A DNA stretch of 64,000 bases from Candidatus Aenigmatarchaeota archaeon (lineage in GTDB: Archaea > Aenigmatarchaeota > Aenigmatarchaeia > QMZP01 > QMZT01), in NCBI GenBank assembly GCA_963726265.1, contig CAVSBQ010000002.1, positions 736,001 to 800,000 of the forward strand. Direction: 5' to 3'. The position numbers were made by a program, and so were the translations under genes. The notes under the pieces are model-generated. The model did no database searches. It saw only the letters and a list, made by a program, of their open reading frames with translations, and was not told the origin of the DNA. Below are positions 771-39,600 of the stretch, in pieces (position 1 is the stretch's first letter; the number at the start of each line of letters is the position of its first letter).

Positions 771-1970
771 ATGAACGGCGCGCCTCCGCGGGAACAGATA
801 ATAGAGCTCCTTAAGAAGCATCCGGAAGGCCTGACTATCACGACTATTTCTGAGTTGACCAGGCTCCACAGGCACACGGTGACCAAATACGTCTACGAGC
901 TGAGGGGCGCGGACATCATCCACGAGAGGGAGATAGGCCCCGCGAAGCTGTGCTACATGAAGGACGGCCTCACCAAAAAACAGGAAAAGCAGACCATGAG
1001 CAGGCTCAACAACCACAACATGAAATCGAGCCTGGGCAGCGTGGGCCAGATACAACTTGTCGCCGTGTTCATGTTCCTTGTGCTGGCGCCGGCGGCAGTA
1101 ATAACCGCCTACAACCTTACGAACACGAGCGAAAACACGTCTTTCTCCATGGAGGGATACATCACAGCGAACAACGAGGTCACGTCAGACGTTAGCGACG
1201 GTATGCTGAATGAATTCTGGATGAACATCACCAACGGGACCTTTGGGGAGAATGCAACCAACGAAACCCTGCCTCCGGGGGAAGGAAGCCCGCTCCCGCC
1301 GCAGGACGCAGCAGAGCAGACGAATGAAACAGGCGGAAACGCAACTGTCGATGTCGACGAAACGTTAAACGCAACAAATATCACGCAGCCTGAGAATGAG
1401 GCGAATGAAACCCTTAATATAACCGAGCCATTGAACGAAACCAATGTCACAGTTTCCAATTCGACAATAATAATTTCGGACCTCACCAGCCCGTTCGAAG
1501 TTAACGTCACCGAGGAGTTCAGCATCAAAGCCGTGATAATGTCCCTTTACGGAAGATCGGAAAACATAAGGGTGAATTTATCCGCGCCCGCATCTTTTGA
1601 GGTCGCCAATCAAAATCAGACAATACCATTTTTAGACGAGAACACATCCGCGGAGTTCGCATGGAACGCCACCGCGAGTGAATGCGGCAATTACACGCTT
1701 GGCGTGCTCGCCGAAAGCGACACTTCTTCCGCTTATAAAAATGTTGACGTGTTTGTCGTGTGCCCCGTGGAAAACGTCACGCTGGAAACAGAGACAATCC
1801 AGGGCGACGCCGAAGTGGGCAAGCCTGTCGTATGGAAGAAGATAATCACGGTCAGGAACCCCAACAGGATAAAAGTAGACAACGTCCAGCTCGAGACGGA
1901 AATCCCGGCGAAGGCCTTCAACGCGGAGCTGAAAAAACTAAGACATGTTTTCGGGAATACCGTGACTTGA
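756..1970 (+). CDS. Giant protein fragment 1: winged HTH, hydrophobic helix, Asn/Thr/Glu-rich spacer, Ig-like domain (likely start ATG 771)
   Basis: HTH REQIIELLKKHPEGLTITTISELTRLHRHTVTKYVYELRGADII; hydrophobic LVAVFMFLVLAPAAVITA (~1056-1110); many NxT sequons after it. Confidence 0.75.
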   Translation: MGSVSMNGAPPREQIIELLKKHPEGLTITTISELTRLHRHTVTKYVYELRGADIIHEREIGPAKLCYMKDGLTKKQEKQTMSRLNNHNMKSSLGSVGQIQLVAVFMFLVLAPAAVITAYNLTNTSENTSFSMEGYITANNEVTSDVSDGMLNEFWMNITNGTFGENATNETLPPGEGSPLPPQDAAEQTNETGGNATVDVDETLNATNITQPENEANETLNITEPLNETNVTVSNSTIIISDLTSPFEVNVTEEFSIKAVIMSLYGRSENIRVNLSAPASFEVANQNQTIPFLDENTSAEFAWNATASECGNYTLGVLAESDTSSAYKNVDVFVVCPVENVTLETETIQGDAEVGKPVVWKKIITVRNPNRIKVDNVQLETEIPAKAFNAELKKLRHVFGNTVT

Positions 1971-4900: not shown

Positions 4901-7900
4901 TTCAATTTCCTCACGGGAGCGTATCCTTCATCCGGAAATGGTTATACAACGCAGGCGATATCATCAGGCACGGACACAATGGTAAACAGATACATAAGCA
5001 CCAATGCGAACGACTACAAGAACGATACCTACAACTGGAAGGTGAAAGTCACCTTCACCAACACGACGTATTACGACCCGTTCAATTTCAGCATCGATTA
5101 CATTGTTTTCAACGCGACCATCCCAGACCTCTACCCGACGAACGTTACGGTGCACAACAACGTCACTGCAGTTTATTCAACGCTTTTCGGGACCGGCGAC
5201 CCGCTCGATATAAGAGTGAACATAACCAACTCGAAGCCGGCAACGCCGCTGACAGGCAACCTCACCATCAACATAACCAATTCCACAGGCTACTCATTCA
5301 ACGTCTCCAGGAAGGAGGTGACATGGGCCGCTGCCGGTTCGACGCTGACGAACATGACCAACATCTCCACTGCCGGATGGAACACCGGCAGCTACAATGT
5401 CAACGTAAGCATTTCGTGGTATGACGGGGCGCCATATTCCACTTCGGTCATGTACTATGAGCTTTTTAATCTGACCAACTTGACGGCAAGAATTTATCCC
5501 AGCCCCGGCCTATGCCTTGGAGAAATCGATAATTTTAACGTGACCATTGTGAGCAACTGGACATCCACCATCACGTTCAACATAAGCCGGGTCACACCCT
5601 CCAATTTCACGGTGAGTCCTGTGTCGAAACTGATGAACGCCTCTTTCGAAGCGTCGAACACGACCAATTTCACCGTCACCGTCCCGGCAACCGCAGGAAG
5701 ATACACGATATACTTCAACGTCTCTTACAGAGACCCCAACAATTACAACAAGTCCTTCATCATCAGCAAGGACGTGTACGTGCCGTCGCCGCGCATAACA
5801 GTTTACAGGGAAACGCCGCCGAAAATCGCGAACGCGACCAATTTCAATTCCAGCTTCGTCATCCACAACCTCGAGTGCGGTCCGGCACAGGACGTCTATT
5901 TTGTGGAGCACATCCCAAGCGGATGGTCCGTAATTTCCGCGCCGGGCAATTACAGCATAAATACGAGAAGCGACGGCATCACCGACATAACTTGGTACGT
6001 TCCATATCTCGGCGTGAACGAGTTCCAGATGGTAAACTACACAACCCTTTCGCCTTCGTCCATAACCACGGCGACTTTCGGCAAATGGAACACTTCATAT
6101 CACGACATCGATGGCATAGAATATAATAGCAGCGAGGCATCGACGTATGTCGTGACGAGTGATACCTACGATTACGCCCATTTCTATTTCACGCTGACCA
6201 TGAACGAGACCAACGAAACGAGGGTCCTGCCGACGAACGTGAGCCAATGGTTCATAGTCACGGGCACCAACGTAGGAAGGGCGACTGCGGCGACTGGAGA
6301 ATGGAACTTTACGGTGAAAATACCGACCGGCTGCAACGTGACCAACAACGGGACGGCGACATCATGGGACGCGGGAGGAAGAACGCTGAACTGGACGCTG
6401 AATGAAGACGTGCCTGTCGGCGGCGTAAAGAATTTCACTTTCAAACTCAACTGCACGCAGGACGCGAACGAATACGACCTGCTCCCGACGACGTATTCGA
6501 TACAGACAGGCGAGCTCGAGTATACCGATTCGGTCTCCTATACCGATTACGGAGGCAGCACGACGCGCTCGAACTTCTATCACCCCTTCACACCGGCTCC
6601 GACCGATTCAGCGAGGATAACGAGGTTCGTCTGGTACCTGACGAACGTTGCGCTGGACGCTGGCGAGTATTGCCGTTTCTGGCTGTTCAATGACTCCGGC
6701 ACGGGCAACCTGACGATAAAAGACAACTGGGTCGGCACCGGCGGAACGCAGTACTCCCAAATGGTCGACGAGGACCCGGCCGACTATAACAAGGAGCAGT
6801 TCACCACATTGCCGAACCACGAGCTTCATATACAGATATACGCCCAGGCTAGCTCGGCTACGGCCGAGTACTGCAGGATGACGAGCATAATGTACAGGTG
6901 GAACTGGGGCGGCTACACCACGGAGCAGCAAGGTATGTTCTTCAAGGTCAGGCGCAACACCGAGCCCAAGATATCCGCCTGGAACGTCACACCGGCGCAG
7001 GGCCAGTGGGGTCAGCCCTTCAACTTCACCATAAAGGTTTACGACCAGAGGAATGACACCATAAACGTTTCCCTGTGGTCAAGGCAGGCCGGTACGAGCA
7101 CGTGGAGCATGATAAACTTCACCCAGACAACGAACAGCATCTCGAATCAGTCCATAAATTTCACGCAGCGCTTCTCCTGTGCCGATGCCGACAAGCAATA
7201 CGAATACAAGATTCGCGCAGAGGACCCCTACTATTTCAGGAAGGAAACGCCCGTCGGCTATTACAACGTGACCAGAGACAACGTAATCTTTGACATAATT
7301 TCAGGCCACGGCTCCGGCGCGATCGCCAATCGCAGCTCAGAAAGAACGAATCTCACGCTCCGCCTGAGGATAAGGGACGAGAACGGCTCTTACCTCCAGG
7401 GGCTTAACACCACGCTTTACATATCCCAGCTGGGAACACTTGGCGGCACAATCCTCTGGGACGGCGGCCAGGTCTTCCAGACCAACGCCGCCGGCAACAT
7501 CACATACAATTTCACGGCCGCCGACCACTGCGACAACGAGTCGACGCCATACACCGAAGAAGAATACGAGGTCGGGCCGCACTGGTGGTACGTGAAGATA
7601 AATTCGAACGAAGTCTGCTACAAGCAGACCAACTCGACAGTCGAGGCGGGCGAATACGGCTATTACAATTTCACGACAATAGGCGAGCTGATAAACACGA
7701 TAGTAGCGCCGACAGGCGGAACGATAATACAGCAGGGCAGGGCGAACGTTTCGATAATGACATACATATACAACTTCTGCGAAGAGGCGATGAAAATAAA
7801 CACGACCCATGTCACATTCAATCTTTCCACCGTTGGCGCCAGCTACCTCTGTTCCAGCATCCAGAGGATAGGCGAGAACGTCTACACGTGCACTTGGCAG

Positions 7901-10900
7901 ACTCTCAACAGGACGAACGGCATGTACAACTTCACCATGAAATCCTACGAGGACAACTATTACAACGACACGGTGACTGAAGTTAACGCCGTCGAGATAA
8001 GAACTGTCCCGATGCTCAGGGCCGCGAATGCCACCTACAGGACCGAATCTTGGTCGAGGATGAGAAACTATTCGGTGAACGTGACCGACAACCTCGACGA
8101 CACGGTGAACGTTACCCTTTGGCTCGCAGTCGGCGCCATCGAAGAATCATACGGAAGCCGCTGCTGCGGTCCGAACTGCCCTTCCAACCCAGTGAACTGC
8201 ACTAATGTTGTTCTGAACTGGACCAACATAGAGCTCAACACCAGCAAGCCATGCGAGACCTATGCGGACAAAACCGTGAGATTCTACTTCTCGGCAGAGG
8301 ATACTGAAACTTACACTTATGACACATCAGTCGCCGCTGGCGACTACATAGGCAACAGCGACACGATCAACATGGAAAAGGCCAACACCACCATCGAATA
8401 CGTGGAAGGCAACAACAGCTTCACCGGCGGGGCGCCGGTCTGGTTCAAGCTGAGGGTCAACGACACCGACAACGGGAGTTCCGTTTATATCAGGCCGTCT
8501 TCCGAGCATCCGCTGATATATTTCAACGTAACTACAGACGAGAACGAGAAAGAGAGCTTCGTCTACGTCAACGACACGCGCACGGATTCGGCTGGCTACG
8601 CGAACGTCACCTTCACTCCCGACGGGAGGTTCAGCCTGGGCAACATGACATGGCGCGGCTACGTGCACCCGGGCGACCTCTGCTACAAATACAACATTTC
8701 GAACAACTTTACCGTGGAGATATTCCTGAACTGGCCACCGATGTTCGCCAACATGAGCGTGAACAACAAGACCACGGACAGCAAGGGATGGGGAGGCGGC
8801 TGGAACTTCTCAGTCGAGGTGAAGGACCACGGCTCGGAGGGAGGAAGCCTGAACGTGACCCTGCAGCTCGACACGAAAGACGGCTGGCGCAACATAGAGA
8901 CGAAAAACTGCACGTCCTGCCTTTTGTGGACAAATATAAACTTCACGGATGTCCGGCTCAACTGCTCGGACCTGAACTCTTCGGCGCGTTTCAGGTTCAA
9001 CGTCACGGACAACGCCAACAACGAGAACGGGACAGGCGTCTACGGCACGTTCGGCGTGCTTCCCGATTCCGTCGCTTTCGAACACGTGCGCGGCAACAAC
9101 ACCATAGCCAACAGGAGCGGCTCGCAGAGTGACCTTCTCGTGCTCAGGCTTTACGACCAGAATAACAACACGTACCTTCCGGCAGGAGCGAACGCGACGT
9201 TATGGGTGAGCTGGAACTATTTCGCTTATGACGACGGCTTGGCCGTAAAAACGAATGCGACAGGCCACATAAACAGAAGCTTCGACCCCACGTGCGACAG
9301 CGAAAGCGACTACGAATACGAGGCAAGAAACCAGATATGGCGTGCACAGGTTAATTCGTCGGATACCTGCTACTACCCGAACATAAGCAGCACGTATTAT
9401 CTCAACGTCATGGGCGACCTTAATCTCACGATAATCAAGCCCGACGGCTCGAACAACTACACGTGGGGCGACAATGTTTTCGTCCAGGGCCAGCTCAAGG
9501 ACGACTGCGGCAACACGCTGGACTATGCGAACGTCGAGTTTAACATGAGCGTAGGAAGTCACAGGTACAATTACTCCAACGTCCCCAACCTCGGAGGCGG
9601 CTTCTACCAGGGCGACTGGAATTCCGCCGGAGCGGCGGAAGGCTGGTACAACGTGACCATGTGGGCCAACAAGACTTACCAGCCGAATCCCAACTACAGC
9701 TATTACTACGTTAACCAGACCACGATAGTCCCGCCGTACACGTTCTACCTCAAGACGATACCGATACTGAAATACGCGAATGTCACGCCCAGGCTTGACG
9801 GCTGGGGTGCCGTATATAATTTCAGCGTCAACGTGACCGACGAAGCCGGGGATAACGTAACCGTGATATTCGAGAGGAAGAAATACGGCGTAGACTATTC
9901 CCAGGTCGGGTCTTCGCAGAGCTGCATTTCATGCACGAATTACACGATGCACTGGAACGAGACCTACATGTGTGCCAACCTGAGCGGCAACCCGACGTTC
10001 TATTTCCAGTTCACGGGAACGGACGAGATCGGAAACGAGCGGAAAACACAAACGGCGACTGGCGATTACGTCAACAACGACAACACCTACGTCTTGGATA
10101 AGGACGACGTGCAGATACTTTATTTCGCTGGCAACGAGAGCAAGGTCAACAGGTCAGGAGGCAACTTCACGTTATCCCTGATAATCAACGACACTGACAG
10201 GAGGGCGTACGTCAGCGATTCCGAGGCGACCGCATACCTCAACATAAGCACGAACTCTAGCAACCCCAATTCGCAGAACCTGACCGAGGCGGTCAACATC
10301 ACCGACGGGACGGGCCATGTCAATTTCGACTTCTCGCTCAAGGGAAACTGCAATTACCAGGTCGGAAAGCAGCAATGGTACGGCTATGTGGGGAGCGCAG
10401 ACACATGTTACAAGACCGCCATATCGCCTTCGTTCAACATAACGGTCTTCGGCGACCTGAACGCCAGCATAAGACCGGACAACTACACCAAACACCAGGA
10501 GGAAAACGTTTACATTTACGTAAACATCACGGACGAATGCGGCCATCTTCTATCAGGCCTGAACATATCCGTCCTGATGGTCAAGAATTCCACCCTGAAT
10601 TACACGTGCGGCGACATAGTGGACTACAACAACGGCACCTACCGCTGCAACTGGACGACCACCCAGGCCATGCCAGTTTACAAATACGGCGTCTGGATAC
10701 AGATGAACTCGACCGGCTACTACAACAACGACACGGAATTGCACAATGACGTGGTTTGGCTGCAGAGCTACATAAACAACGCACCCGTTTTCTCAAGCCC
10801 GTCATTCATGCGCGAGGGATGGGGCGCTGCCACGAACTTCAGCGTGCACGTCGACGATCCGGACTACAACAACGTCACCGTCTGGTTCTGGACCTCGGAT

Positions 10901-13900
10901 ACGGGCTCGGAGCCATGGACCCTGAGAAACTACACCAACTGCACGCTTTGCGCCAACACGTACGTGAACTTCTCGCTGTTCCACAACTGCTCCTTCCTCG
11001 GCAACACGTATTATTTCAAGTTCAACGGCACCGACATGAACTACAGCGGCCAGTACGACCTCTCCGGCACGTCGAGCTCGCAGACCTACGATGTCGAAAA
11101 GGATAACGTGAGCGTTTCATTCGTCGCAGGAAGCAACAACGTAGTCAACCGTTCCGGGACGCAGTTCACCAACGAGACCATGATAACCAGGGTCTACGAC
11201 ACCGACAACAAGACGTACGTGGGTTCCGGGGTTTACGGTAAGCTGTGGATCAGATATAATGTAAGCGCTGGTTACGACGGAGGCCTTGAAAACACGACTG
11301 ACGGCAGCGGTTATCTGCGCTTCAACTTCAATCCCGGCTGCGGCTATACAGTCGGCTTCCATAACTGGACTTCGGGCACGACAGTAAACACGTGCTACGA
11401 CGAAGAGAACATGACAACCCCCTCGAATCTCACGATAATCGGCGAACTCATACACACGTTCGACAACGCCAGCTGCGGCGGCAAGGATTACTGCCTGGAC
11501 GGCGAGAACGTCACAATATACATAAACATTAGCGACGACTGCAACGTCTCCGTCTCCGACGCCAGCATGAACATATCCGTTTCGCACGATGTATTTTCGG
11601 CGAATTGCAGCAGCGTCCAGGCGCTCGGCAGCGGGCGCTACAACTGCACCCTTAACATGACCAGCCTGCCCGGAGGCTACTACAACGTCACCGCCGCCAG
11701 CGCAAGGACCTATTTCAACGCGAATTCGACGAAGTTCGTCAACGCGTTCTTCAGGCAGGTCGCGCCATCCCTGAACAACGAGAACGTCGACCCCTCCTCC
11801 ACCTACTGGGCCAGGACCGTTGCAGGCGGACCCAACTTCGCATTCCACGTCAACGTGAGCGACGATGACGACACGCTCACGCTTGAGCTCTGGGAATACA
11901 AGAATTCCACCAGCGGCCCGTGGCAGCTCGCCAACTCGACAGTGCTTTCCGACAGCGTGGGCTATAACGCAACGCGTATCAGGACGTATTATTCCTCTGA
12001 CATAGGTATCTGGTACTGGAAGTTCAACGTCACTGACCAGAGAGGCCTCACATACGAGACCGCGAACCACACACTCGAGGTCACGAAGAGGGCGCTCAAC
12101 ATAAGCCTTCTGGCGGGCAACGAATCGAACGTGACGAGCGTGGGCACCAACAGCACGGAACTGGCCGTAAGCGTGAAGGACGCCGTTGACGGCCAGAACG
12201 TCACGCTTCCCACGTACAAGAAATTCTGGGTCACCACCAACGGCGTCAGCTGGGGTCCGGCGCAGGACATCTCGATTCCGGGTTTCGGCTACATGAACAG
12301 GATATTCGAGCCCGACTGCCCGACCTATTACACCGGAAGGCAGCTGTGGAAGGCGGGCGTAGCCGGCCATACGCAATATTATGATGCCAATTCGAGCAGC
12401 TACGTGCTGTATATATATTCGCAGATGTACCTCAACGTGACGTATCCCAATAACGTGTCCTTTGTCAAGGACAGCTGGGTTCTGATAAACGGGACCATCA
12501 TCGACGAGTGCAGGAACGTTTCCGCCGCGACTGTCAAATTCATATCAGTTAACCAGTATGGCACGGATATTTCGCCGCCATGCACGGCAAACAACTACAC
12601 CGGAGGCATATACAACTGCACGCAGGACATGACCGGAGAGGATTTCGGCCTGAACGCATGGTACAACATCACCATGAACGCTTCGCTGGCGTATTACAAC
12701 ACGACGAGCATGACCTTCCCGCACAGGTACAGGCTTGCTTCTTACCCGGACCTCACCTCGCCCGAAGTCGATCCGCCCGGCGAGGGATGGGGCTACAACT
12801 ATTCCTTCAACGTGACGGTCAACGACCAGGATTCCGGCGACGTCGTGAACGTCAGCTTCTGGTCCGCTTCAGCCTCATCAGGCCCGTGGACTTTCCGCGG
12901 CTCGCAGAATTGGACCAGCGACCAGAACGACCACAAATTCGAGTATCGCCAGGCGTTTACCTGCAGCGATTACACGGCGGACTCGAATCACAGGCTCTAC
13001 TACAAATACAACGTCACCGACACCATAAACTTCACCGACGAGACGAGCCCGACGAATTTCATAGAACTTCAAAAAGACGACGTGTGGTTCGCCAACGTGA
13101 CTGGCAGCGGCATAACCATAAACAGGGAGGGAACGGACACGGGCAGGATAGGCGTGCAGGTTTATGATGACGACTCTTACAGCAAAAACAAGCTCGGCTC
13201 CGGCATAATGGTTTCGTTCTGGCTCACCAACGACTCCGCTAATTACGCTTTCAATCTCACGAACACGACCAACGCGAGCGGCTACGTGTTCTATGATTTC
13301 GAGCCGACCTGCAGCTACGCCGCCGGTTCGCAGCTGTGGTTCGGGGGGACGGAAAATTCGACCTGCTACAAAATGACAAACCAGAGCCAAGGTTCGCAGA
13401 GTCTCGTGGTCCGCGGTCAGTTCAAGAACAATCTCCAGACGCCGGCCAATGGGACGCGCTTCAACGTGACCAACGGCATAACAGTAAGGTTCAACATCTC
13501 CACGGACTGTAGCAACGAGGGCATAGTCAGCGGAGCGACGACGAAAAGCGTGACGCTCATCCATAACCAGACCGGCGCTACATCATCCTGCGTGACGGTC
13601 AACGACGAAGGCAACGGCTGGTACAACTGCACCTGGTCCTCGACAGGTCAGCCCGAGGGCAACTGGAGCATCAACGTCACGACGGGCAAGAACGACTACA
13701 ACCCGAACACGACGGTATGGCTCAACAGGTTCTTCCTCGACAACCGCGGCCAGGCCGCCGAAAACCAGACCTTCGCCCCGTCGCAGGGCGGCTGGGGCAC
13801 GACTTATACTTACAATATCTCCATAGCAGATCCTGAAGGCGACACGGTGACATGCGTCCTGTGGACCAACACCACGGGCTCCGGATGGATAAACAGGGGC

Positions 13901-16900
13901 AGCAGCGCCGTCGCCGGTTCGGGCAACTGCTCGGTGCAGGTGAGCAACTTCAACTACACGGACGTCGGCGCCTCCCAATACAGATTCGCAATCAATGACA
14001 CTTACAACGCGCTTGAGACCGCGAATTTCAGCGGGCCCGTGATAAACAATGACAGCGTTACCGTAATCCACAGCGCGGGCAACAACACGAACGTCAACAG
14101 GAGCATGGACCAGACCACGCTGCTCGGGGTGAGGGTCAACGACACGGACAATGGCCAGCCTACATCCGGCATAGACACGACTTTCTGGGTATCATATACC
14201 AACAATTCCGTGGATTACGACACCGGTTTCCTCAACCAGACCTCTTCGGACGGCTACTCTTATTACAGTTTCAACGCGACATGCGGCTACACGGTCGGCG
14301 TCCACAACTGGAAGGCCGGCGTGACGGATGGCATGATACAACAAGACTAATTCCTCGACCTTCACCGTCAACATAACCGGAGACCTCATACCGACTATCA
14401 TCAGCCCGCTCGGAGGCGTTGCAGGCGTATACCCGCGCGGCCAGAACATAACCCTGCGCGGCTATCTCGCATCGGACTGCCCCTCCGAAACCATGACTGG
14501 CACGCCGTCGACTATGAGATATTCCAACAGCTCGGGCAGCTATTATTGCTCCAATGTCATCGACGACGGCGGAGGCTACTACAACTGCACCTTCAACACG
14601 TCCTCGCTGGCGGTGGGCTGGTATAACCTGACCATGAACTATTCCAGGCAGCATTACAACGCGAATTCGACCACGAAGACCAGCGCCTTCTTCATAGAGA
14701 CCGCGCCAAGGCTCGCCGTCCCGAACATAAGCAAGACACTGGGCGGCTGGGGGGAGACTTACATATTCTCCGTAAACGTGAGCGATGAGGACAGCGATAA
14801 TGTAAGAGTATATGCATGGTACAGGAAGCTTCCAAGCGGTGCATGGACCCAGATAGGCTCCTACAACCAGACCAGCGGCATGAACAAAACCGTTACCTTC
14901 ACCACCTCCTTCCAGTTCACGGACATGGGCAACCTGACGTTCAAGTTCAACGTCACGGACGACGCGGACACCCCCGTTTCTGGCGGCACGCAGTACACCG
15001 ACGAAATCCAGGCGGGCTTCAATTTCACGCTCGAAGCCGACGACGTGACTTTCATTTATGTTGCCGGCAACGAGACCACGATCAACAGGGTCGGAGCTAA
15101 CACCGCCACATTCACACTCTCGCTTTATGATACCGACGTGGGCGCTGCTGTCACGATGAACGAGAACGGCACGTTCTGGGTCACGACGAACGAGAGCGAC
15201 CCAAATTCATGGAGGAGCGCCACACAGAAATTCTTCGTCACAACGCTTAGCTACGACTTCAATCCCGACTGCAATTACCAGACTGGCAAGCAGAAATGGA
15301 AAGGAGGTCTGATAAGCGGCGGCTCGGGCTACTACAAGAACACCAACTCGTCCATCTACAACGTCACCATAACATCCGAATACACTCCATACATATACTA
15401 CCCGAAGGGCAGGAGCTTCGACAGGGATAATCTGTCGATGACAATAACCCTGAGCATGAACCTCACGGACAACGAAGCCGCCTGCGGCCTGGTCAGCGGC
15501 GCCACCGTAATGTTCAACGTCACCAACACCAGCTACGTCCGCCAGGCGACCGACTACGGCACCGGCTGGTACAATTACACCATACCGCAGACAGACTTCG
15601 CGGGCTGGAGCTACGGTTGGTACACTCTTCAGGCAAACGCGACGAGGCAATATTACCCGACCAACGTAAGCACGACTTACCCGGTTCGTTCTATCTTGCA
15701 TCGAGGCCATCTCTCGGTTCGGCAACCTCTGCCAGAGGGTGTCCGTACTGGGGCTGCCCCGCGAACTTCTCCATCGAGGTCACGGACAACGACGGCGGCA
15801 ACGTGACGGTCTTCCTGTGGAAGAAGATAGACACGGGCGGCCAGTGGGAATACCTGGGCAACGCGTCCTGCGGTCCGTGCTCAAGCACGCCGCTGCAGAT
15901 AAATTCGTCTTTCGACTGCGGCGACATAGGAACCAACTACTTCAAGTTCAACGCCACGGACAACTGGAACTACACCGCCACAACCGGCGAAAACAGCAAC
16001 CCCTTCAGCGTGAACCCGAATCTCGCTACAGTCTCTTACGTCACGGACGACAGCATCAGCATGACTAGGGAGGGCACATCCGCCTACAATCTTACGGTAT
16101 TCTTCAACGACATAACCAGAAGCCAGCCGGTGCTTACCGGAACGAACGGCACATTCTACGTGACCATGGACGGCACCAGCTTCGGCTTCGATAATGAACA
16201 CCACGACCAACTCCAGCGGCCACCTGAATTACCAGCTCGGGCCCAACTGCTCGTATTCGGTCGGCCTGCAGAGGTGGCACGCTGTCCTTGATAATGATAA
16301 TTGCTATTACGACGCTTCGCCTTCACCCGAAAACTTCACCTTCACCATAGCCGGCCAGCTCAAGAGCAAAATCGACACGCCGGCGCAGGGCTCCCAGTAC
16401 CTTGCGACGAGCCTGATTCCCATAAGATTCAACGTCACTTCCGACTGCATCTCTGAAGAAGGAAGGATATCGAATTCCAGCACGTCGCTCGAGCTTTATT
16501 CGCCCACCGCCGAGTACCAGCAATGCACGCCACTTTACAACGAGAGCGGCTCCAACGCAGGCTACTACAACTGCACGTGGGACTCGGCAGGCGACCTGGT
16601 TGGCATGTGGGGCATAAGGATTAACGCCAGCAAGACAGGCTATAACATCAATTCTACCCTCTACACGAACTGGATAAACCTCACCAACTCCGCGCCAGAG
16701 GGCAGCAACATGGACGTAACGCCAGACCAGGGAGGATGGGGGAGCATTTTCAACTATTCGATAAACGTTTCTGACGCCGACAATGACAACGTCAACTGCA
16801 CGCTCTTCGTATCAACTGACGCGGGCCTTTCATGGACCCAGAAGGGCTCGATGGTAGTCTACGGCGGGCATGACCTCTGCTGGGTCGAGGTCAGCGATTT

Positions 16901-25900: not shown

Positions 25901-28900
25901 CGTGCTTAATTCATCGAGGCAGTATTTCCTGCCTAACACGACGACTCTTACCAACTGGTTCTGGCTCGAGAACAAGAACGCGACCGAAGCCGACCTCAAG
26001 GTCACGCCAGCCCAGGACGGCTGGACCAGGCTCTACAACTACACCGTCCTGGTCAACGACGCCGACTCCGACGTAGTCAACTGCTCACTTTACATCAACA
26101 AGTCCGACGGCCAGGGATGGATATACAAGGGCTCCAACATCCTCTACAACTCAACAGGCATAGTGAACAGGAACTGTTCGGTGGCGGTACACGACTTCAC
26201 GGGCGACGACATCGGCAACAACTCCTTCCGCTTCCTCATCAACGACAGCGAACCCGCGAACGTCCACTACACCTCAACAGCGTATGGCCCGTATCTTGAA
26301 GAAGCGAACGTCACGATACTTTACATCGCAGGCAACAACTCATACGTAAACATAAGCAATTCGAATCCAGACAACGCCATTTCACTCGTGCTGAGAGTCA
26401 ACGACACGGATAATTCGTCATACCCTTCGGGCGTCAACGCTACCATATGGGTCATGTTCAACGAGAGCGCATGGGACAGCGGCAACTTTTCCCAGACGGC
26501 GAACGGCTACATAAACTACACCTTCGACCCTAACTGCAGCTATAAGCCGGGCACAAGGCCATGGAATGGCGGGACGACAGACAATTATTATGACGACAGG
26601 AATTACACCGGCAACCTGACCATACGCGTCATAGGCGACCTGAACAACACCTTAATCTCACCGCTCAGTTCCATGGGCGCTTCCTCACAATACCTGCCGC
26701 GGCTCGAACGTGACAATAAGGGTGCGGCTGAGGGATTTGTGCGGCAACAACATCACGGGCGCCGCCTCCAACATAACTCTCAGGATGATGCATAACGACA
26801 CGGGCCAGCAGTTCAACTGCACCGGCATACTCGAGGAAGGCAACGGCACCTACAACTGCACCTTCAACACGTCCGGCATGCCCGCGAAATTCTACCACAT
26901 AAACATGTTCTCCAACAGGAGCTATTACAATCCCGACAACGACACTGCGAACCTCGCCTTCTTCATAGACACAGCGCCCGTGCTTTCCGGCTGGTCGCTC
27001 ATGCCTTCGGGGGACGGCGGCTGGGGCGAAGAATACACGTTCATGGTCAACGTGAGCGACGAGGACGGCGACATCATGGAGGTCTGCGCCTACGCCAACA
27101 AGAGCAACACGTGGGGCAGTGCCGGCTGCAACCTGACGGTCGCTGGCATTAACCAGACGGTCATATTCATAAAGGCCAGCGACACGTATTTCCACAGCGG
27201 CGACATAGGTCCTGCGGAATACAAGTTCAACGTCACGGACAGCGGGAACAACCCCTACGTCGGCGGCTCGCAATACTCGGACCAGACACCTGTCACGCCT
27301 TTCACGGTAGCAGGAGACGACGTGTTCATCAATGTCACGCTGGGCAACAACAGCGTTGTCAACAGGACCAGTCCCGACTTCCTCTGGGAAGTCAAGATGT
27401 ACGACACGGACCTGGAACCCGACGAGGAAGTATACGCCGGGACCGAAGGCATGTTCTATTACACGAAGAACATATCGAGCGGCTTGTGGTACCAGTCGGA
27501 GGTAAAAACCACAAGCGGCGGCGCCAGCGCCGGCATAATCAGGTTCAGGGACGAGGATCCTGAGGCGGAATTCTACGACTGCTCCTTCGTGATAGGCCCG
27601 CAAATGTGGAAGGCCGGCTTAATAACGAGCGACATATACAAGCCGATAAATTCATCGGTAGCCAACTGGAGCATGATCACCACCAACATAACCGCCGTGC
27701 AGCTAGACCCGGACGGCATATCGAGGGTCAGGGGCGTCGACAGCATAGTGTTCCGCGCGAACGTGACGGACGACTGCGGCGCGCTGGCCGGAGCGACTGT
27801 CACTTTCAACGTGCTTCAGCAGGGAAGCGAGGCCGTGAAGGAAGCGTGCTCAGGCACGCTTTACCAGGGGAACGGGATATACAACTGCACGATGACGGCC
27901 GGGACGCATTCGTCATGGAACACCGGCTGGTATAACGCGACGACCGTTGCCGGCAAAACTTACTATAACGGGACCACCTACAAGAAAAACAGCTCCTTCT
28001 ACTTGGCCACGGTGCCGGTCATAGGGAGCACGGCTGCCCAGGCGGCTTCGGGCTCGTCCGGCGGATGGGGCGAGTCATGGAGCTTCCTTGTCAACAACCT
28101 CCAGGACCTGGACGGGGGCTGGATGAACGTATCGCTGTGGGCGAATCTCACGGGAAGCTGGGAATATCTTAACAGCACCAACACGACCGCGACGTCGTTC
28201 CTGAGCTTTACCGGCCATTCAGTTTAACTGCTCGGATTTGCTCGGCCAGACCTCCAGCCAGAAGCAGTACAACATAACCGCGATAGACGAATGGAACTAC
28301 AGGGACGAGGACGTGCAGGCCTTCACGCTTGCTCAGGGACGACACCCAGACATATTACATAGAAGGCTCCAGCACGACGGTCCCAATATACAGGGAAGGC
28401 GCGAACACAAGGCTGCTCAAGGCCAGGATAAACGACAGCGACAGGAACGACCTCGGCCTTGGCGGCGGCGTGAAAGGCGCTTTCAGGATGATGACCAACT
28501 TTACAAACGACACCTATCCCGGTGCTTTCATATTCATAAACATGACAACGACCGATGCCGACGGGAACCTTTCATACACTTTCGATCCCAACTGCACTTT
28601 CAGCGTTGGTCTTCTCAAGATGGTATGCGGGTTCTTACAATGACACTTGTTATGACGATGATTTATTCTACATGGGGCAGCAGGGTACTGGTATACGGCC
28701 AGCTCAAGAACAACATTCAGCAGCCCAACTGGACCAGCGGCCAGCCCGTCGTCGCCGTAGGCAACAACGTAACCATAAGGTTCAACGTCTCGACCGACTG
28801 CGGCAACGAGGGCCTCCAGACCGGCCTTTCGAACGCCACCATACGACTCAGGTCGCCGACGGGTGTATGGGAACACTGCAACTCGACGCAATACGTCTTC

Positions 28901-31900
28901 GACGAGGGCAACGGCTATTATAACTGCACCTGGGACACGTTCCTACACCAGGGAGGCAACTGGTCCATAGAGATAAACACGTCCAAAGGCAATTATTCAT
29001 CCAACAGCACGCTGCTAGTGAACTACATCTACCTGAACAACACGCCGCCCGCCTATGGCAATCTTTCAGTGACGCCGGGCGAGGATGGCTGGGGCGTGGT
29101 CTTCAATTACAGCGTCGACGTATGGGACCCACAGACGGACAACGTCACATGCAAGCTTTTCGTCAGGACCAATAATTACGACAAGACATGGGTGCTCAAG
29201 AACTCGACTCTTATCATAGGCGGCAGGGGTAAGTGCTCGCTCACGGTAAGCGATTTCGACTGCCTCGACATCGGCAACGACAGCGTCAACAGGTTCATGT
29301 TCGAGCTCTACGACGGCACCAACATCCTCCCCACGTCCAACGTTTCCGCGCCCAACATCACGGCCAACAGCGTCAGTATATCATATTATTACGGCAATAT
29401 GTCCCTGCTCAACAGGTCCAACGCAGAACCGGAGCATTCAGCGTTTCTCGCGGTATTCGTGAACGATACGGACAGGAACGAGTCTGCTCCGGCAAACGTG
29501 GACGTGACTTTCTGGATAACGCTTAACGCATCGAACCCGTCCAGCTGGGATGACGGCAACCTCACGGAGACCAACTCATCCGGCTTTGCCAACGTGACCT
29601 TCAACCCGGAGTGCAGCCCTTTCTACACGGTCGGCAACCATTCGTGGAAGGCAGGGACGACTGACGGATGCTACCAGAAACTGAATACAAGCGAGGAGCT
29701 CAACCTCACGATACGCGGGACCCTTGTGCCGCAGATAATATACATGCTTCCGCCTTCTCCGGGCCTGGGGGATGAAATCCTGAGAGGCGAGAACATCACG
29801 CAGCAGGTCTACGTGGACAGCGACTGCGAGGGCGATGCCGTCAATGACGCCAATGTCAGCATGGGTTTCACCAACGAGAACGGGGATTTCTACGGCTGCG
29901 CTCCCCGTTTACAGGATAGTCTCTCCCGGCGTCTACGAATGCGAGAGGAACACGACAGACATGCGCGCCAGATGGTACAACACGAGCACGAATTCCACCA
30001 GGGAGCTTTACAACATGAACGCCACGATGCTCGCCGACCACTTCTTCATAAAGACCATGCCGGTGCTGTCGTCGCCCAACATAACCAAAGACCCGGCCGG
30101 CTGGGGCGAGGCCAGAAACTTCACAGTGAACGTCACGGACGAGGACCTCGACAACGTCTCGATCCAGCTTTACGCGAGATGCGTATCGACCGTATTCGGA
30201 AGCTGCCCCGGCATATATAGCGACAGTGACTGGCATTTCGAAAACGAGCAGACGCTCACGTCCCCAATAAATGCGACAGCGTACATCAGCCTCGGCAGCA
30301 ATTTCTACGGCGTAGGCTGCCCGACCAGGGGCAACTGGAGCTACAGGTTCAATGCAACGGACATCCCCCATGACTACAAGGACGCGACCCAGCCTGCGAA
30401 TTTCAGCGTCGAGAGGGACGACGTGATATTCGAGCCATTCGCCGGCTACAACAACCCGATGGCATGGAGGAACGGGACGAATTCGACGCTCCTCAGCGTG
30501 AGGGTATATGACAACGACAGCGGAGAGTATGCAGGTTCCGGCAACGCGACCGTGTGGGTGACCAAAAACGCGTCCAATCCCGTGTCATGGGACGTGGGCA
30601 AATTCATAGGCATAAACGGCAGCGGCTACATAAACTACAACTTCCTTGACGAAGGGGAGATGCCGATGCACGAATGCAATTACACGGTCGGCAGGCACAA
30701 CTGGACCGCGGGCGTCGGCGGCATAAGCGAGGACATCTGCTACAAGACGGCCAACTCTTCAATATATAATCTAACCATGTGGGGCGAGCTGAGGCCGAGG
30801 GTCACTTACCCGACAGGCCTCAAGGGCTTCCTCGTCGGCGACCAGATAAACATAACCGGCTACGTCGAGGACGACTGCTCATACAGGACAGGCCTCGGCA
30901 TCGAGGGCGTGGACCTGGACCCGGCTTCGCCGTCGCAGAGATACATGATAAGGGGCGAGTCGGGAACGCCAACGCGTTACTGCACCGCCAATTGGCAGGA
31001 GGGGAGCGGATACTACAACTGCACGTGGGATTCCACAAGCCAACTGAGGATTAACTGGAACATAACGATGAGCGTGAACAAGACGTATTACGCCCCCAAC
31101 TCGACGATGGAAGGCAGGGCATTCCACCTGGGAACCGCCCCGCTCGTATCAACCCCCACGGTCCAGCCTGCATCAGAAGGATGGGGCTACAGGTTCACCT
31201 TCAACGTCTATTTCACCGACTCGGATAACGATGTGAACAATGTGTCGTTATGGAAGAGCTTCAACAACGCCACATGGGATTTCGTCAATTCGACGCAGAT
31301 AGCATCTTCCGGGATAACCCTTACGTTCTACCAGAGATTCACCTGCAGCGATTCGCAGCAGACGCCCGGCAGGCTGAACTACTTCAAGTTCAACACGACC
31401 GACCCGTTCAACTACACGTCCGAGACGACGTCTTCGACGTTCAACGTCACGGAGGACAGCGTCACTCTCACGCTTAACAACTCTGCGAGCACCGACACGG
31501 TAAGGAGGATGGGCAGCAACAATGCACTGCTCAAGTACAGGATAAAGGATGACGATTACAGCCAGTCCGGCAACGCGACATACCCGAGCGGCGTGGCGGC
31601 TCTGGTATGGATAACCAGCAACGGCACCGCATATTCCAATGTTAAAACCTGCACGTCAAGCAGCGGCCACTGCGAAGTAAATTACGATCCTAACTGTTCG
31701 ACCTCGCTTGCAGGCGTGCAGCGCTGGAAAGGAGGAACCAACGACACTTGTTACGAATATGAAAACTCCACCAACAGGTCACTCGAGGTCATAGGGCAGC
31801 TCAACGTTTCCATCGTGAACCCCGTGGCGAACATCATACTCAACAGAAACACGACCGTCGCGTTCAACGCGTCCGTATACGACGAATGCAACCTCGGCAT

Positions 31901-34900
31901 AAACGATTCCAACGTTTACTGGTTCAACGAAAGCATGAGCCTGCTTGCGACGGGCCACAACGCGACGTGGCTGGTGCCCTACAACTACCCGCTCGGCTCC
32001 GGCAAAACCATAAACGCAAGCACCAACAGGACATCCTACGACGGCAAGAGCAACGCCACGACAATTTACATATATGGCTGGGCGGAGCCCGACGCGATGA
32101 GCCCTGCAGAAGCGACCGTGTACATCGCAGGAGGCAGCAAGACGATAAAATGCCACGTGAGGGACACGAACACGCACGAGAACCTCGTCGGCTATAACGT
32201 AAGCTTATACGTCAACGGCGCCTATCAGGGGTCGGAGCTGACGGTCGGCGATTCCGGCAATGAAGGCAACGCCTCCTTCATGTTCAGCACCAACAGGCCT
32301 GCCGGCTATTACAACATCACGTGCTCGATAGGCAGCGATAACGTCATGTATTACAACGTCTCGACTGCCAACATAACCCACGAAATCCGCGTGTCCAGGC
32401 CGCTCATAATAGACCAGATAGTCAGGGTTCCATCCAACGGCATCATATACAGGAACGATTCCTTCTCTCCTTACCACGTCAACGTCACCGTGCACATCAA
32501 GGACGCCGAGCTAAGCGGGGAGGGAGCAGACAACGCTACGGTGCTCTTCTATAACCACTCGCAGGAATACATCGGCAACTGCACGACGAACGTATCAGGC
32601 TGGTGCAACGAGAGCGTGGCATGGAATCCCGAAGACACCATAGCGCCTAACTATTACAACATCTACATGAATGCCACGAAGCCGTACACCAACGAGAATT
32701 CGACGACCAATTCAACAAGCATAGACGTGTGGGGCAGATACCTGGCCAACATAAGCAAGCCAGATGAGGGCTCGCTTTACGGCAAGGGCGCGCTCATACC
32801 ATTCAACGCCAGCATAAGGGACGAAGACTGGAACTGGTTCATGGGGACGATGAACGTTTACTGGTACAACGATACGAACGATTACATCTACATGACCGTT
32901 TCAGGCGAGCTTAGCACCTTTGATTCCAGTTCGCAGGACCCCGGCTTCAGGAATTTCACCGCCAGGACCCAGCTGGGCCTTGCCCACTATTACTCCGAGA
33001 ATGACAGTGTCACGGTGCAGATGACCGGCTGGTCGATCGCTTCATGGGAATACCCCCCGCACCTCTCTGCTGTAAGGTATCCCTATGAGTTCCAGAGGGT
33101 CTGCAGGGTCATCGATTACATTTCGATGACGGGCGTGCCCAACTATCCCGTCAACATGTCTTACTGGAACGCGACGTCAGGCCAGTGGGTTTACAACGGC
33201 ACATACGTCACGAACGCCAGCGGCCACGTAAACGCAAGCTGGACGCCGTGGGACAAGGGCAACGTGACCTTCAACTGCACGATAGGCAACAACGCCACGC
33301 TGCAATACACGGCAAAGGAAGGCAACGAGAGCGCGGCCGCAATAATCTGGGTCAGGGACGAGGTCCCGCCAAACATAACAGGCGTCACCATCCTCCCGAA
33401 CGCCAGCATAGAGGCCTATCTCAACACGACGAACATCTCGGCAAACGTGACGGATGACTATATGGTATGGGACGTATGGGCGCGCCTTGGCCTGCCCAAC
33501 GGCAGCTATGAAAACAAGAGCATGAGCAACATAACGCTTACGACCTACAGGGTGGTTTACCCGCCCAAACTGAACGGCACATACAACGTGACGATATATG
33601 CAAAAGACAAGGGACCCGAATACAACATAAACAGTTCCGGCCCGTATTATTTCACGGTCTGGGGCAAGGCGAATGGAAGGGTAGGCCAGAACGCGACCGT
33701 TTACGCCGGCGGCATAACCCAGATTAATCCGTTCGTCTTCAACCTCACAATCAACTTCACCAACAACGGGCCGCCGCATGCATACGAGGCGAACGTCAGC
33801 ATATATGATCGTTCATCGCCGACGTCGAATGTTTCAACAGGCTACGTGACATACAACGAAACCTCGCATTACTGCGGCAACATGACCAACGGCTCGCTGT
33901 GCCAGTGGACCGTGCTCATCACGGTGCTTGCCGCTACTCCGCCGACTGGCATATACGTCTATGGCAACGCGACCTGGATGGAGCCCGACAGGACGAACGC
34001 TTCATACGCCAATTACACCTACGTCATAGTCGCTTCCAACCCGGTCATAGAAATCCTCGAGAGCGGCATCAACAGGACGACCCCGCACGACAAGGTCACA
34101 TACGTCGACAACCTGACCGTGTATTCAGGCGGCAACGACAGGATAACCAACATACAGCTCGGCAATCTCGGAGGCAACTTCGACCTTAACTGCTACGACT
34201 GCGGCCTGACCATCGTTCCGAACTCCCAGGGAGACCTTGCAGCGGGCTATAATTTCACTTCGGACATCTGGGTCACCATTCCCAAGGGCAAGCCGCCCGG
34301 CAACTACTGGACCTACATAACGGTCAACTCCACGAACGCCGGCTCGGACATATACCTCATGAACCTCACCGTCCCGCTGAATTCTTCATGGCTGAGAACG
34401 CCGTCGTCCTTCCCGGTCATAATCGCGCAGCCCAACGCCAACGGCCTGGTGGGCAGGTTCAACGTCACGAACGACGGCAACGTCAAGATAGATTTCATGA
34501 GCGTTAAAAGGGAAGCCGCAGGTCCTCTCGTGGCGGTCAACCCGGAAGGCTTCTCCGTCGACACGATGTCGACCAGGGAAATAAATATCACGTACACGAT
34601 ACCCATAGGCTATCCGAACGGCCTGTATTACGGCGTGATTGCGATAAGGAACGACACGCTGCCAGCGGACCCGGTCGAGCAGACGATTTCATTCTGGCTT
34701 AACGTCACAGACCTCGCCCCGAACATAAGCAGCTACAGCGTGGAACCAAGGAATTTCGAGGCGGGCTTCGAAACCGTCATCATAAACGCCACAATCACCG
34801 ATAACATCGCGGTCGACAAGGGATGGACTGAAATAGAGAGGCCCGGGGAATACGTGAGCTATTCCAGCAGCCAGACGATGATGCACAACGCGACCGCGCC

Positions 34901-37900
34901 CGATGACGGTTTCAATTACACCGAAGGCATAAACTCGACCGGCACCATGCAGCAGTTCAACGTGACCGTTTACAACTGGAATGCTGACACCTTCATCTAC
35001 GTCAACATAACTGTCAACGGCCTGCTGATAACGGGCAATCATTCCATCGAGAACGGCACGAACTTCACCATCGACGCAGTCGCCGCCGGCGCGAACCTTT
35101 CGCTTCCGGCCAACCACGACATAAACATAACCATCTATAATTCCGCAGGCGACCAGCTGGAAGCCAGTTACACGTCATGGCTTTCCTACAGGATATTGCA
35201 CGGCCAGCTGATAAAAACCATGATGGACAGGAACGTTTCGTTCTTCAACACGACATACTGGACCAACGTGACTGGCTACCACAAGCTGAGAATATGCGCG
35301 AATGACACGTCGGCCAGGACAGCGTGCACCGCTGACATAAGCCTGCTGGCCGCGGGCAACACCAGCATCATAGTAACACCGAATGCCACCGTGATAAACG
35401 TCACCAACATAACCACCATCGCGGGCCAGAGTTTCGGAGTGGCTTTCAACGTCTCCAACGCCGGTTATGCCAGGGCATACAATGTGATCGCCAACGTGTC
35501 TTACCTGGCGGGCTGGTCTGCCGTACCGGAGGGCTTCTACTTCGGCACGCTTTACAGGACTAACGTCTCGTCCAACCTTACTGTCATAACCGTGCCGCCG
35601 TCCACGGTCCCGGGAGAATACAATGCATACATAACCGCCAACTGGACTAATCTCAACGCATCCAATCTTGGTACGAATTTGACGGCCATAATATTCAACG
35701 TGAGCGCCAACCCGATGATAGACCTCCAGGACAGGATACCGCCTTCAGGCGAAGAGGTGATAAGCGCCGGCAGCGAAAGGAATATCACCTTCAACATCAC
35801 GTCGATAGGCAACGTCAACGCGACCAACATCACGTTCAGCTGCAGTTCCGGAATCGTTTGTATGAACTTCTCCCCCGTGTTCAGCACAGCTCTAATTCCG
35901 GTTATGGAAAGCAACGCGACGCAGCTCGTTAACGTGAGCGTCTCCATCGCCTGGAACTTCCCCGCAGGCCCATACAACGGCACCATAACCGCAACGGGCG
36001 ACGGGACCTCGGATTCCTCGCCCATTTACGTAACCATCCCCGCGAACGTTTCATGGAGCATGGAGCCGAACAACATAACCAGGGAAGTGTTACAGGGAAC
36101 GAGCGGATTTTCGGCTTAATAGCAGTCAGGAACATGGGCAACGTCTACGCAGGCCTTACCGTCGATCCAGATAGGACTGGAACGTACCGCCCGGCTACAT
36201 CATCCTACACGCCTGCAGCATTTCACCTGGACATAGGGGAAATAGAATATATTGTATGTCAATTACAGCGCTGCCCGTGACTTACATCACATCCACATAC
36301 ACGGGCAAAATATGGACCTCAACGTAACATCCTACGATGAAGAGAATTCCAGAAAATATCCTCATAAACATAACCATACATCCCTACTCCGTCAACATCA
36401 TCTCGCCGACAGAGGCGAGCCCGAAGCTCAACGTCTCTCCCGGCGACATCGGTGCAGGCCAGGATAAACATCACCTACGGCACGTCGCCCGTCACGCAGA
36501 ACATGACCTTCAACCTTTCGCTTTACAACAGCACCATGCGCTCGTACGTCACGCTCACGTCGCAGAGCTACAACTCGACCAACGGGCTGTGGTACGTGAA
36601 CTTCACCGCGCCGAACGCTCGCGCTGCAGAAGGGCTACGACCTCAACGTCACCGCGACCTACAACAGGTATGGCAATGCAGAACGTCACTTATTATGACA
36701 CCGAGGCCAAGGCCGTCGTATACAAGGACGAGGTGCCGCCAGAGATTGTGATATCCGTGCCAGCGAGGGTGCCGGCCAACAACACCGCGACAGTTTATGC
36801 GAACATAACCGACCAGGGCGGCGTGCAGAACGCGAGCATAATCGTCTATAACCCGAACGGCACCGCGCAATACGGCAACATGACCTTCATTTCGAAGAGC
36901 ATCGACACGTATGTCTACAGATATGATTACATCAACACGACCTCGACCGGAATCTACACGATCAACGTGACCAGCTGCGACATGTCAGGCAACTGCAACT
37001 CGACCAACAAGACCTTCGAAATATTCCTGGGCATCTGGTTCTCAGGTTACGCCATAGACATCTTCAACTCCAGCCACCCGGTCATACGCCAGGAATTCAG
37101 GTTCTACGACGACTACGGCCAGCTGCTCATGAACTTCACCGGCAACTCCCTGACCGGCTTGTATAACGAGAGCATAGACTCGAGGATATATGACATCGCG
37201 GTCAGGTTCTGGAACGACAGCATCTCGCTCCTGACCGTGCCGATGTTCGTGAACATACACAACCCCATACAGTTCGGCAGCGTCCCGAACACCAGGGTGT
37301 CCCTGCTGGGCGCCGGGGTCTACAGGAGCGTGTGGGTCAACAACTCGATGAACTATTCGATGGGGAACATCTCGCTCAATTACTCCAGGTATGAAGAGCA
37401 GATCAACCCCGTCAACATCAGCCTTTACCATTGCAGTTCATTCAATTCCATTTCGTTCTGCCAGTCCGGATGGAGCAGGATGACCGTGGCGGTCAACACC
37501 ACGACCACCACCATAACCGCCAACTCGACCGACCTTAACGGCGTTTTTGTGATAGCCGACTTCATCTGCGGCGACGGCAGCTGCTCGTCAGCTTCCGGAG
37601 AATCGATGGCCAACTGCCCGCTCGACTGCGTCATAATAACCCCGCCTGTTACTCCTCCGGGGGGCGGAGGCGCGGCTGGCGGAGCGGGAGCCGGGGCCGC
37701 GGCAGGCGCCGGAGCCGCCGCAGGCGCAGCGGGAGCGGCGCAGGTCCCGGTCGAGATAAAGTCGACGCTGATATTCGTCACGCTAAGACCCGGCGAGCAC
37801 GAAATACACTCGATAGACATAACCAACAACCTTGGCAATGCCGTCGAGGTCGAGAATAGCGTGATCGGCAACGCCTGGGAGCTTGTCCAGATTGAAAAGC

Positions 37901-39600: not shown

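Follow-up and report, generated by a model that had tools for sequence, protein, structure and literature searches.

Giant surface proteins of Nanohaloarchaeota have been named SPEARE; proteomics shows that one of them is made, laminin-G was named as universal in their ectodomains, and similar cytoplasmic domains were already noted in Aenigmarchaeota (Hamm et al., 2019, PMC6642349). A 2023 re-analysis describes proteins of 8,880 and 9,409 amino acids (aa) with a signal peptide, ~75 immunoglobulin-like domains, a transmembrane (TM) segment, a VirB4/TraG-like ATPase and a coiled coil, places a VirB4/TraG-family ATPase gene directly downstream in nanohaloarchaeal loci, and proposes that nanohaloarchaea inject effectors into their host by a type IV secretion-like route (PMC10266531). 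In this study, we analyzed 64,000 nucleotides (nt) from a Candidatus Aenigmatarchaeota archaeon (assembly GCA_963726265.1, contig CAVSBQ010000002.1, positions 736,001 to 800,000, forward strand; hereafter the window, whose own numbering is used below). Sequence, structure models and relatives agree on one giant gene in this window, encoding a protein anchored by two TM helices with an intact, conserved ATPase motif set, and accompanied by a conserved coiled-coil partner gene and conserved promoter sites. The gene very probably belongs to a DPANN archaeon and encodes a giant surface protein of SPEARE type. An initial annotation of this DNA knew of no characterised protein with such an architecture, which is in fact the SPEARE design of DPANN archaea (PMC6642349; PMC10266531).

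On the + strand, 750-39600 is covered by a chain of twelve stop-to-stop open frames, each overlapping the next. A codon-usage score trained on long open reading frames (ORFs), with the frame path found by Viterbi segmentation, shows the coding signal changing frame at the overlaps with no break, the switches lying near 1965, 2263-2372, 14337, 15684, 16188, 26700, 28214, 28330, 28634 and 29896, with several more within 36090-36676. When uninterrupted ORFs of relatives are aligned to the successive frames with consecutive residues, 19 shifts are found in total, most of them single extra bases in the window, and the frameshift-aware alignment packs eight of them into 36108-36681, less than 600 nt. 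Because certain switches, e.g. 28330 and 36449, fall within frames that are open by chance, ORF lists alone understate the shift count. No stop occurs across 12,747 codons in the corrected frames; a further ~190 codons make up the dense stretch 36108-36681. About half of the shift sites lie in or beside runs of at least three identical bases, a context that leaves the type of error unsettled. The initial annotation had joined more than 10 ORFs into one 38.8-kb frame and had called for a frameshift-aware alignment; this alignment returns a single gene across all junctions, with more shifts than had been seen. The gene and its shift sites are as follows.

771..39600, + strand: giant gene of ~12,940 codons, read through 19 frame shifts in the assembly (frame chain, Viterbi path, colinear relatives)
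Near 1965, 2263, 14333, 15683, 16190, 26697, 28222, 28330, 28620, 28672 and 29903: shift sites 1-11
Near 36108, 36254, 36273, 36325, 36345, 36448, 36617 and 36681: shift sites 12-19

Relatives bridge all of the breaks. The ATPase end of the gene is matched in 54 of 91 genomes of the same order, and the open frames that hold it reach 14,526 aa (G072), 13,519 aa (G034), 13,462 aa (G033), 13,314 aa (G012) and 8,399 aa (G031), among others; a stop is present in one of the 73 matches listed (G037, one TAG). The single ORF of G072 is colinear with positions 768-39594, its twelve pieces tracking the frames of the window. Within the same genus, the contigs of G087 are open throughout (C13, 3,868 aa; C25, 2,281 aa, the entire contig; C2, 4,465 aa), as is G089:C15 (866 aa), and the two genomes jointly span all 19 sites, aligning with consecutive residues over every junction at 58-92% identity (35% in the divergent stretch 36089-36634). 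A database protein of 3,755 aa (P0122) is colinear with 28329-39597. The start at 771 also holds: although the first 400 residues could be taken for a helix-turn-helix protein of their own, in G072, G087 and G089 a single ORF begins with them and continues into the giant protein. In the protein database, 849 homologues of the ATPase domain measure 597-1,903 aa and 287 measure 1,904-5,000 aa, and the G087 orthologue used as query finds 242 of 2,455-7,814 aa; sizes above 7,814 aa are taken from open frames in genomes. Those with names are mostly DUF87 proteins of Aenigmatarchaeota, Micrarchaeota, Woesearchaeota, Nanoarchaeota or Nanohaloarchaea, and many carry NEW3, filamin, Big or laminin-G domains. 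The tabulation of fused lengths suggested in the initial annotation thus finds long ectodomain fusions to be very frequent, in these 287 and 242 long relatives and up to 14,526 aa, so that homologous ATPases are far from never being fused to long extracellular regions. With relatives of this length, ~12,940 residues is not a record size. Archaeal proteins of more than 10,000 aa have been counted in a survey, mostly from Asgard archaea (10.1101/2023.11.21.568195).

The 19 breaks are, with high probability, indel errors of the assembly rather than biology. The same segmentation run genome-wide, with the giant gene excluded, gives 84 frameshift-like switches, of which 20, picked for long segments on either side, were taken to Pfam. 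In at least 6 of the 20, a single conserved domain or gene is cut in two, with the profile match resuming next to where it stopped (class I aminoacyl-tRNA synthetase, DUF362, GatB/E, GatD, Na/H exchanger and fructose bisphosphatase), 7 are ordinary gene boundaries and the others are ambiguous, so that about one third are true by this sample. The frame of the fructose bisphosphatase is 385-424 aa in 4/4 congeners vs 219 aa here, and that of the class I aminoacyl-tRNA synthetase is 974-984 aa in 4/4 congeners vs 597 aa. Housekeeping frame shifts outside the window lie in G000:C2, e.g. at 84235, 225682, 293894, 297204, 487550 and 835163. Contigs of four other runs were also compared over 16751-36750; the runs in which parts of the gene are present are sediment metagenomes (shares 0.13-0.38). 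Among the indels listed, these contigs have one base fewer at 26696 (X2), 28222 (X2), 28329 (X1, X2, X3) and 29902 (X2), all of them predicted shifts, while contig-free stretches such as 28500-28694 in X2 are uninformative. A candidate shift at 16822-16844, where the X2 and X3 contigs have indels, was rejected, the frame of the window being intact and conserved there relative to G087. Over 16751-36750, the other runs' contigs often skip forward or jump back by 0.1-6 kb within the repeat zone, consistent with repeat collapse or with strain variants in the number of ~1,000-aa super-repeats.

Some results weigh against assembly error at every site. The X1 and X3 contigs share the extra base of the window at 26696, and X3 lacks a deletion exactly at 29902, though its contig is one base shorter over 29790-30322; because of this, some breaks may exist in real populations. 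In addition, 19 shifts in 38.8 kb are denser than the rough genome-wide estimate (84 candidates, about one third of 20 confirmed). These points, together with the clustering of 8 shifts in 600 nt, favor a real pseudogene in this strain, in which the shifts lie in the DNA of the organism and the giant protein is not made or exists as fragments alone. We nevertheless regard a pseudogene as improbable. Neutral decay that leaves 19 indels is expected to leave several nonsense substitutions beside them, yet the corrected codons hold none; residues are conserved relative to G087 after each shift, essential genes of the same assembly are broken likewise (the two checked, fructose bisphosphatase and the aminoacyl-tRNA synthetase, being intact in 4/4 congeners), and the extra base at 28329 is missing from three independent runs. 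Several separate genes, i.e., an operon of large surface proteins with a 1,087-aa membrane ATPase and a 400-aa winged-helix membrane protein, is what an ORF caller would lead one to expect (~9-11 genes), and stand-alone ORFs of 336-397 aa with the winged helix and TM segment, close in length to the 404-aa first ORF, do occur in other genera (g2, g7, g16, g38). This arrangement is scarcely credible here: homology to continuous same-genus ORFs passes every junction, where the new frame has no start codon (frame 2 is homologous from 2264-2282 and its first start codon comes no earlier than 2378), and no fragment begins with a signal peptide. The independent starts and signal peptides that would speak for true fragments are therefore found at none of the junctions. 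A single gene broken by assembly errors is the reading we follow below.

Its product divides into the following parts.

771..965, + strand: cytoplasmic winged helix-turn-helix (wHTH) domain, residues 1-65 (AlphaFold2 model, Foldseek, alignment)
1050..1109, + strand: first TM helix, residues 94-113, a signal anchor with the N-terminus inside (hydrophobic IQLVAVFMFLVLAPAAVITA)
1110..38403, + strand: ectodomain of ~12,400 residues, Asn/Thr-rich (sequons, composition, Pfam)
6464..32300, + strand: super-repeat zone with units of ~1,000 aa (self-BLAST of 200-aa windows)
37654..37740, + strand: Gly/Ala-rich linker ahead of membrane-proximal NEW3-like domains (translation)
38404..38532, + strand: second TM helix with basic stop-transfer patch (translation; helix 2-29 of the AlphaFold2 model)
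38404-38484, + strand: the TM helix itself, followed by KKKKGKR (translation)
38485-38532, + strand: basic patch RRLFATWRGKKKKGKR (translation)
38533..39399, + strand: cytoplasmic HerA/FtsK-superfamily ATPase domain (Pfam, AlphaFold2 model, fold search)
38665-38688, + strand: GATGSGKS (translation)
38743-38757, + strand: VFDPT (translation)
39037-39063, + strand: LLLIYDEVH (translation)
39121-39141, + strand: REFRKWG (translation)
39154-39165, + strand: MISQ (translation)
39400..39600, + strand: C-terminal helical, coiled-coil-like tail and stop codon (AlphaFold2 helices 321-385, namely 321-346, 352-366 and 370-385; translation)

The C-terminal part is as the initial annotation gave it, with a TM helix, a basic stop-transfer patch and the full ATPase motif set, and its central claim of a single giant polypeptide whose surface region is joined through this helix to a FtsK/HerA-superfamily ATPase is supported. 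Of its proposed architecture, the surface region, TM helix and ATPase stand, the N-terminal winged helix and first TM helix had been missed, and the six bundled stalks that it drew from a possible hexamer are hypothetical. For the ATPase, Pfam ranks DUF87 (3e-11) and HerA_C (1.3e-8) first. For the isolated domain, T4SS-DNA_transf scores 24.2 bits, its cut-off being 20.1, with no single stretch passing and DUF87 and HerA_C scoring higher, and FtsK_SpoIIIE stays under its cut-off (20.6 bits vs 24). The AlphaFold2 model (34 sequences, predicted local distance difference test [pLDDT] 89.6) has S. solfataricus HerA (4d2i, E 1.6e-14) as its best solved fold match, followed by bacterial defence HerAs, with the coupling protein TcpA at rank 37 and the FtsK motor at rank 39. 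All 34 aligned sequences have identical Walker A, Walker B, REFRKWG and SQ motifs. As initially reported, a HAS barrel is missing, since only ~45 residues with two short strands in the model separate the TM helix from Walker A and leave no room for one, and Pfam finds no NurA, Mre11 or Rad50 family among the ORFs of the window. Two further DUF87 matches occur in the genome, at G000:C2:340595-341233 (L001), a canonical-looking HerA in a 694-aa frame beside an EamA transporter gene, and at 832162-832647 (L003), a weaker match in a 447-aa frame.

At the other end of the protein, no Sec signal peptide is found at the N-terminus, which instead consists of the wHTH domain, a basic linker and a TM helix; both protein ends are therefore cytoplasmic in this clade. 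The wHTH part is modelled as three helices and a beta hairpin (pLDDT 86-91), has Foldseek matches of MarR/ArsR/AspA type (E about 2e-4) and is 56-79% identical among 9 relatives, above the identity of the ectodomain, with the helix LHRHTVT-Y-YEL invariant. The TM helix forms a long helix in the model, is followed by N-glycosylation sequons and is kept in 9/9 aligned relatives. In two other families of the order, giant ORFs begin with ordinary signal peptides. In genera g1 and g4 the wHTH-TM module is part of the giant ORF, and in g2, g7, g16 and g38 it forms stand-alone ORFs, because of which the fusion may be a lineage-specific event. The stand-alone copies lie on contigs G079:C2, G080:C8, G078:C32, G069:C104, G052:C45, G053:C24, G019:C3 and G017:C9, a different contig from the ATPase end wherever both are seen. 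Among 240 checked database proteins of the first two length classes, none of the 120 of at least 1,904 aa has a wHTH match, a result of little weight as most close relatives are cut N-terminally at contig ends. A complex prediction of wHTH residues 1-85 with ATPase residues 30-386 scored 0.00, which is evidence neither way.

Between the two helices lies an ectodomain with 748 N-X-S/T sequons, 6.35 per 100 aa, at 10.5% N and 10.6% T; these values cover the first 12 corrected segments, from residue 1 to nt 36107, and so include ~113 N-terminal cytoplasmic and TM residues. In Pfam (E up to 0.01, 11 ORF pieces), only scattered beta-sandwich domains are matched (MG2, filamin, invasin D3 and NEW3), along with YtkA. 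Self-comparison finds a paralogous match for 44 of 65 windows of 200 aa, with a period of ~1,000 aa between ~6.5 and 32 kb, and the copies at about 19.2, 22.2 and 25.2 kb match each other at 57-85% identity.

The gene is flanked by a conserved promoter region and a conserved partner gene.

152..625, - strand: divergent small wHTH protein, 157 aa (Pfam HTH_24, 2.2e-8)
634..649, unstranded: 16-bp perfect palindrome ATTGTCGATCGACAAT beside the start of the divergent wHTH gene (alignment of 9 upstream regions)
683..691, + strand: TATA-like box CTATATATA of the giant gene (conserved in 9 upstream regions)
719..734, unstranded: operator-like site TGTACACTAATGGCCA with a degenerate right half (TGTACA-N4-TGTACA in relatives)
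39690..41309, + strand: conserved partner gene for a 539-aa Lys/Glu-rich coiled-coil protein without a TM helix (homologues downstream of the ATPase end)

A region of 145 bp separates the giant gene from the divergent wHTH gene, whose start codon is conserved beside the first palindrome in the aligned upstream regions. This palindrome is perfect in 6 of 9 orthologous upstream regions, has one change in 2 and is a variant in 1, and it occurs at a single place in the genome. The TATA-like box would act as a promoter element. The second site, TGTACA-N4-TGTACA, lies ~50 nt before the start codon in 8/9 loci, the window being the exception, and is likewise found at a single place in the genome. Compared with loci L021-L028, the window has TGTACACTAATGGCCA at 719-734 and forms a different 14-bp palindrome, CTAATGGCCATTAG, and this departure could be real divergence or an assembly error. 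On the downstream side, a homologue of the coiled-coil partner directly follows the ATPase end in 11/11 related loci at 31-67% identity; no Pfam family matches the 539-aa protein.

Beyond the partner, 41330-47248 (+ strand) encodes a second large surface protein of 1,972 aa, with 124 sequons and NEW3 and MG2 domains; it begins with a signal peptide, ends in a TM helix and a short helical tail in the cytoplasm, and has no ATPase. By eye, the C-terminal tails of the giant protein (39400-39597), its partner (41100-41306) and this neighbour (47051-47245) have a short motif in common: G, a hydrophobic residue, I/F and S/T, then Y and K a few residues on. SHOCT was suspected for this motif and dropped, Pfam at E up to 5 returning no such family. 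A ParA/MinD-type ATPase (48154-48924, + strand) is followed by long coiled-coil proteins of 648, 1,111, 179 and 397 aa up to 56183, and two of these genes overlap at 54454-54503, where a frame switch was called that may again reflect an indel error of the assembly. On the - strand, a 308-aa protein (56523-57449) has HTH_20 and S_layer_C (S-layer outer domain) matches and no visible TM helix.

Compared with SPEARE as published, the giant protein has in common a giant adhesion-type beta-sandwich ectodomain, a TM helix near the C-terminus, a cytoplasmic P-loop ATPase and then a coiled coil, with most of the length extracytoplasmic and the C-terminal region cytoplasmic (TM helix at 38404-38484, 748 sequons before it). 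The ATPase domain has homologues in proteins named Nanohaloarchaeota or Nanohaloarchaea, which are 52-58% identical over the whole domain: P0166 (Nanohaloarchaeota archaeon, 2,130 aa) has 52% identity over 99% of it, and P0248 (Nanohaloarchaea archaeon, 7,378 aa) has 58% identity to the G087 orthologue. The likeness to the type protein NAR1_1133 and to SVXNc_0300 rests on these two proteins and the published descriptions. The differences from the accounts in PMC6642349 and PMC10266531 are the length (~12,900 residues vs 5,998-9,409), the N-terminal wHTH and TM anchor instead of a Sec signal peptide, the lack of detected laminin-G, protease and toxin-like domains, a downstream pair of genes for the 539-aa coiled-coil protein and the 1,972-aa surface protein rather than a VirB4/TraG-type ATPase gene, and a freshwater sediment rather than a hypersaline habitat. 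The N-terminal winged helix with first TM helix, the conserved promoter palindromes and the coiled-coil partner are undescribed in the passages of these two papers that we considered.

More distant systems share single parts of this architecture. The ATPase core matches archaeal HerA (4d2i; DUF87/PF01935) best in both fold and sequence and shares Walker A and B and further conserved motifs with it, whereas the ATPase here is membrane-tethered, lacks the HAS barrel and the NurA/Mre11/Rad50 neighbours, and coexists with the separate canonical DUF87 gene L001. TrwB, VirD4, TcpA and FtsK (2ius) are membrane-tethered ring ATPases of the same superfamily; the chain of a coupling protein crosses the membrane twice, with its N- and C-termini in the cytoplasm, and the FtsK gamma domain is a winged helix on the motor's own polypeptide. 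The giant protein likewise has two TM helices with its ends inside and a winged helix and motor on one chain, but the fold matches are weaker (ranks 37 and 39), FtsK_SpoIIIE is below the Pfam cut-off, a 12,400-residue loop separates the TM helices and the winged helix is N-terminal. ToxR/CadC and ArnR of Sulfolobus are membrane-tethered transcription regulators. Like them, the giant protein has a DNA-binding domain, here a predicted one, on the cytoplasmic side of a TM helix, with operator-like palindromes in the promoter of its own gene; the difference is that the putative regulator makes up no more than the first 65 of 12,900 residues of a surface protein.

The chain of the giant protein runs from a cytoplasmic winged helix through the first TM helix to ~12,400 probably glycosylated residues outside, and back through the second TM helix to a cytoplasmic HerA-like ATPase and helical tail. 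Based on these features, we infer its function as follows. The ectodomain is probably a host-contact fibre, the ATPase probably forms a ring, by analogy with HerA/FtsK-type motors, and probably acts, where the cells touch, on a polymer or on the fibre itself, and the winged helix probably controls the expression of its own gene by feedback, through binding to the conserved promoter palindrome. Several observations weigh against parts of this proposal and of the SPEARE assignment. The Pfam match of the N-terminus to HTH_11 is weak (6e-4, under Pfam cut-offs), and the promoter-proximal palindrome of the window has a degenerate right half, TGGCCA. Laminin-G was not found by Pfam (E up to 0.01) in any of the 11 ORF pieces, while more distant family members carry PF13385 or PF02210. 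Unlike in nanohaloarchaeal loci, Pfam found no VirB4/TraG gene or other type IV secretion component in the window, and none adjacent to the giant gene. Instead of handling DNA or the fibre, the ATPase might drive secretion, injecting effectors into the host through a type IV secretion-like system. The T4SS-DNA_transf score of the isolated domain, the presence of TcpA among the fold matches and a two-TM topology like that of coupling proteins point in this direction, yet in sequence and in fold the domain is closest to HerA, the fold matches listed include no VirB4 chain, and Pfam found none of the components just named in the window, so we consider a secretion motor unlikely. Doubtful to a greater degree is an extension of our proposal to a self-limiting, two-ended machine. 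The winged helix, as the first part to leave the ribosome, would bind TGTACA-N4-TGTACA at the transcription start while the 39-kb message is still being synthesized, and this early binding would let few copies be built at a time. By analogy with coupling proteins, the winged helix would then sit beside the HerA/FtsK-like motor under two TM helices per chain, twelve if the ATPase is a hexamer, forming a DNA-handling uptake port at the base of the host-contact fibre through which a nucleotide-poor symbiont might take up host DNA.

It is important to understand how DPANN archaea hold and exploit their hosts, for which SPEARE-type proteins, at ~3% of a 1.1-Mb genome, are the leading candidates. 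Automatic annotation would render this locus as ~10 unrelated hypothetical proteins, and since indel errors hit even essential genes, the gene calls of this assembly, and any pseudogene or 'split gene' claims made from them, need polishing. The grouping of the ATPase with HerA rather than VirB4 in sequence and fold matches bears on the type IV secretion hypothesis as published (PMC10266531). This clade also offers three experimental handles on SPEARE-type proteins: a putative DNA-binding domain on the N-terminal anchor, operator-like palindromes and an always-present coiled-coil partner gene.

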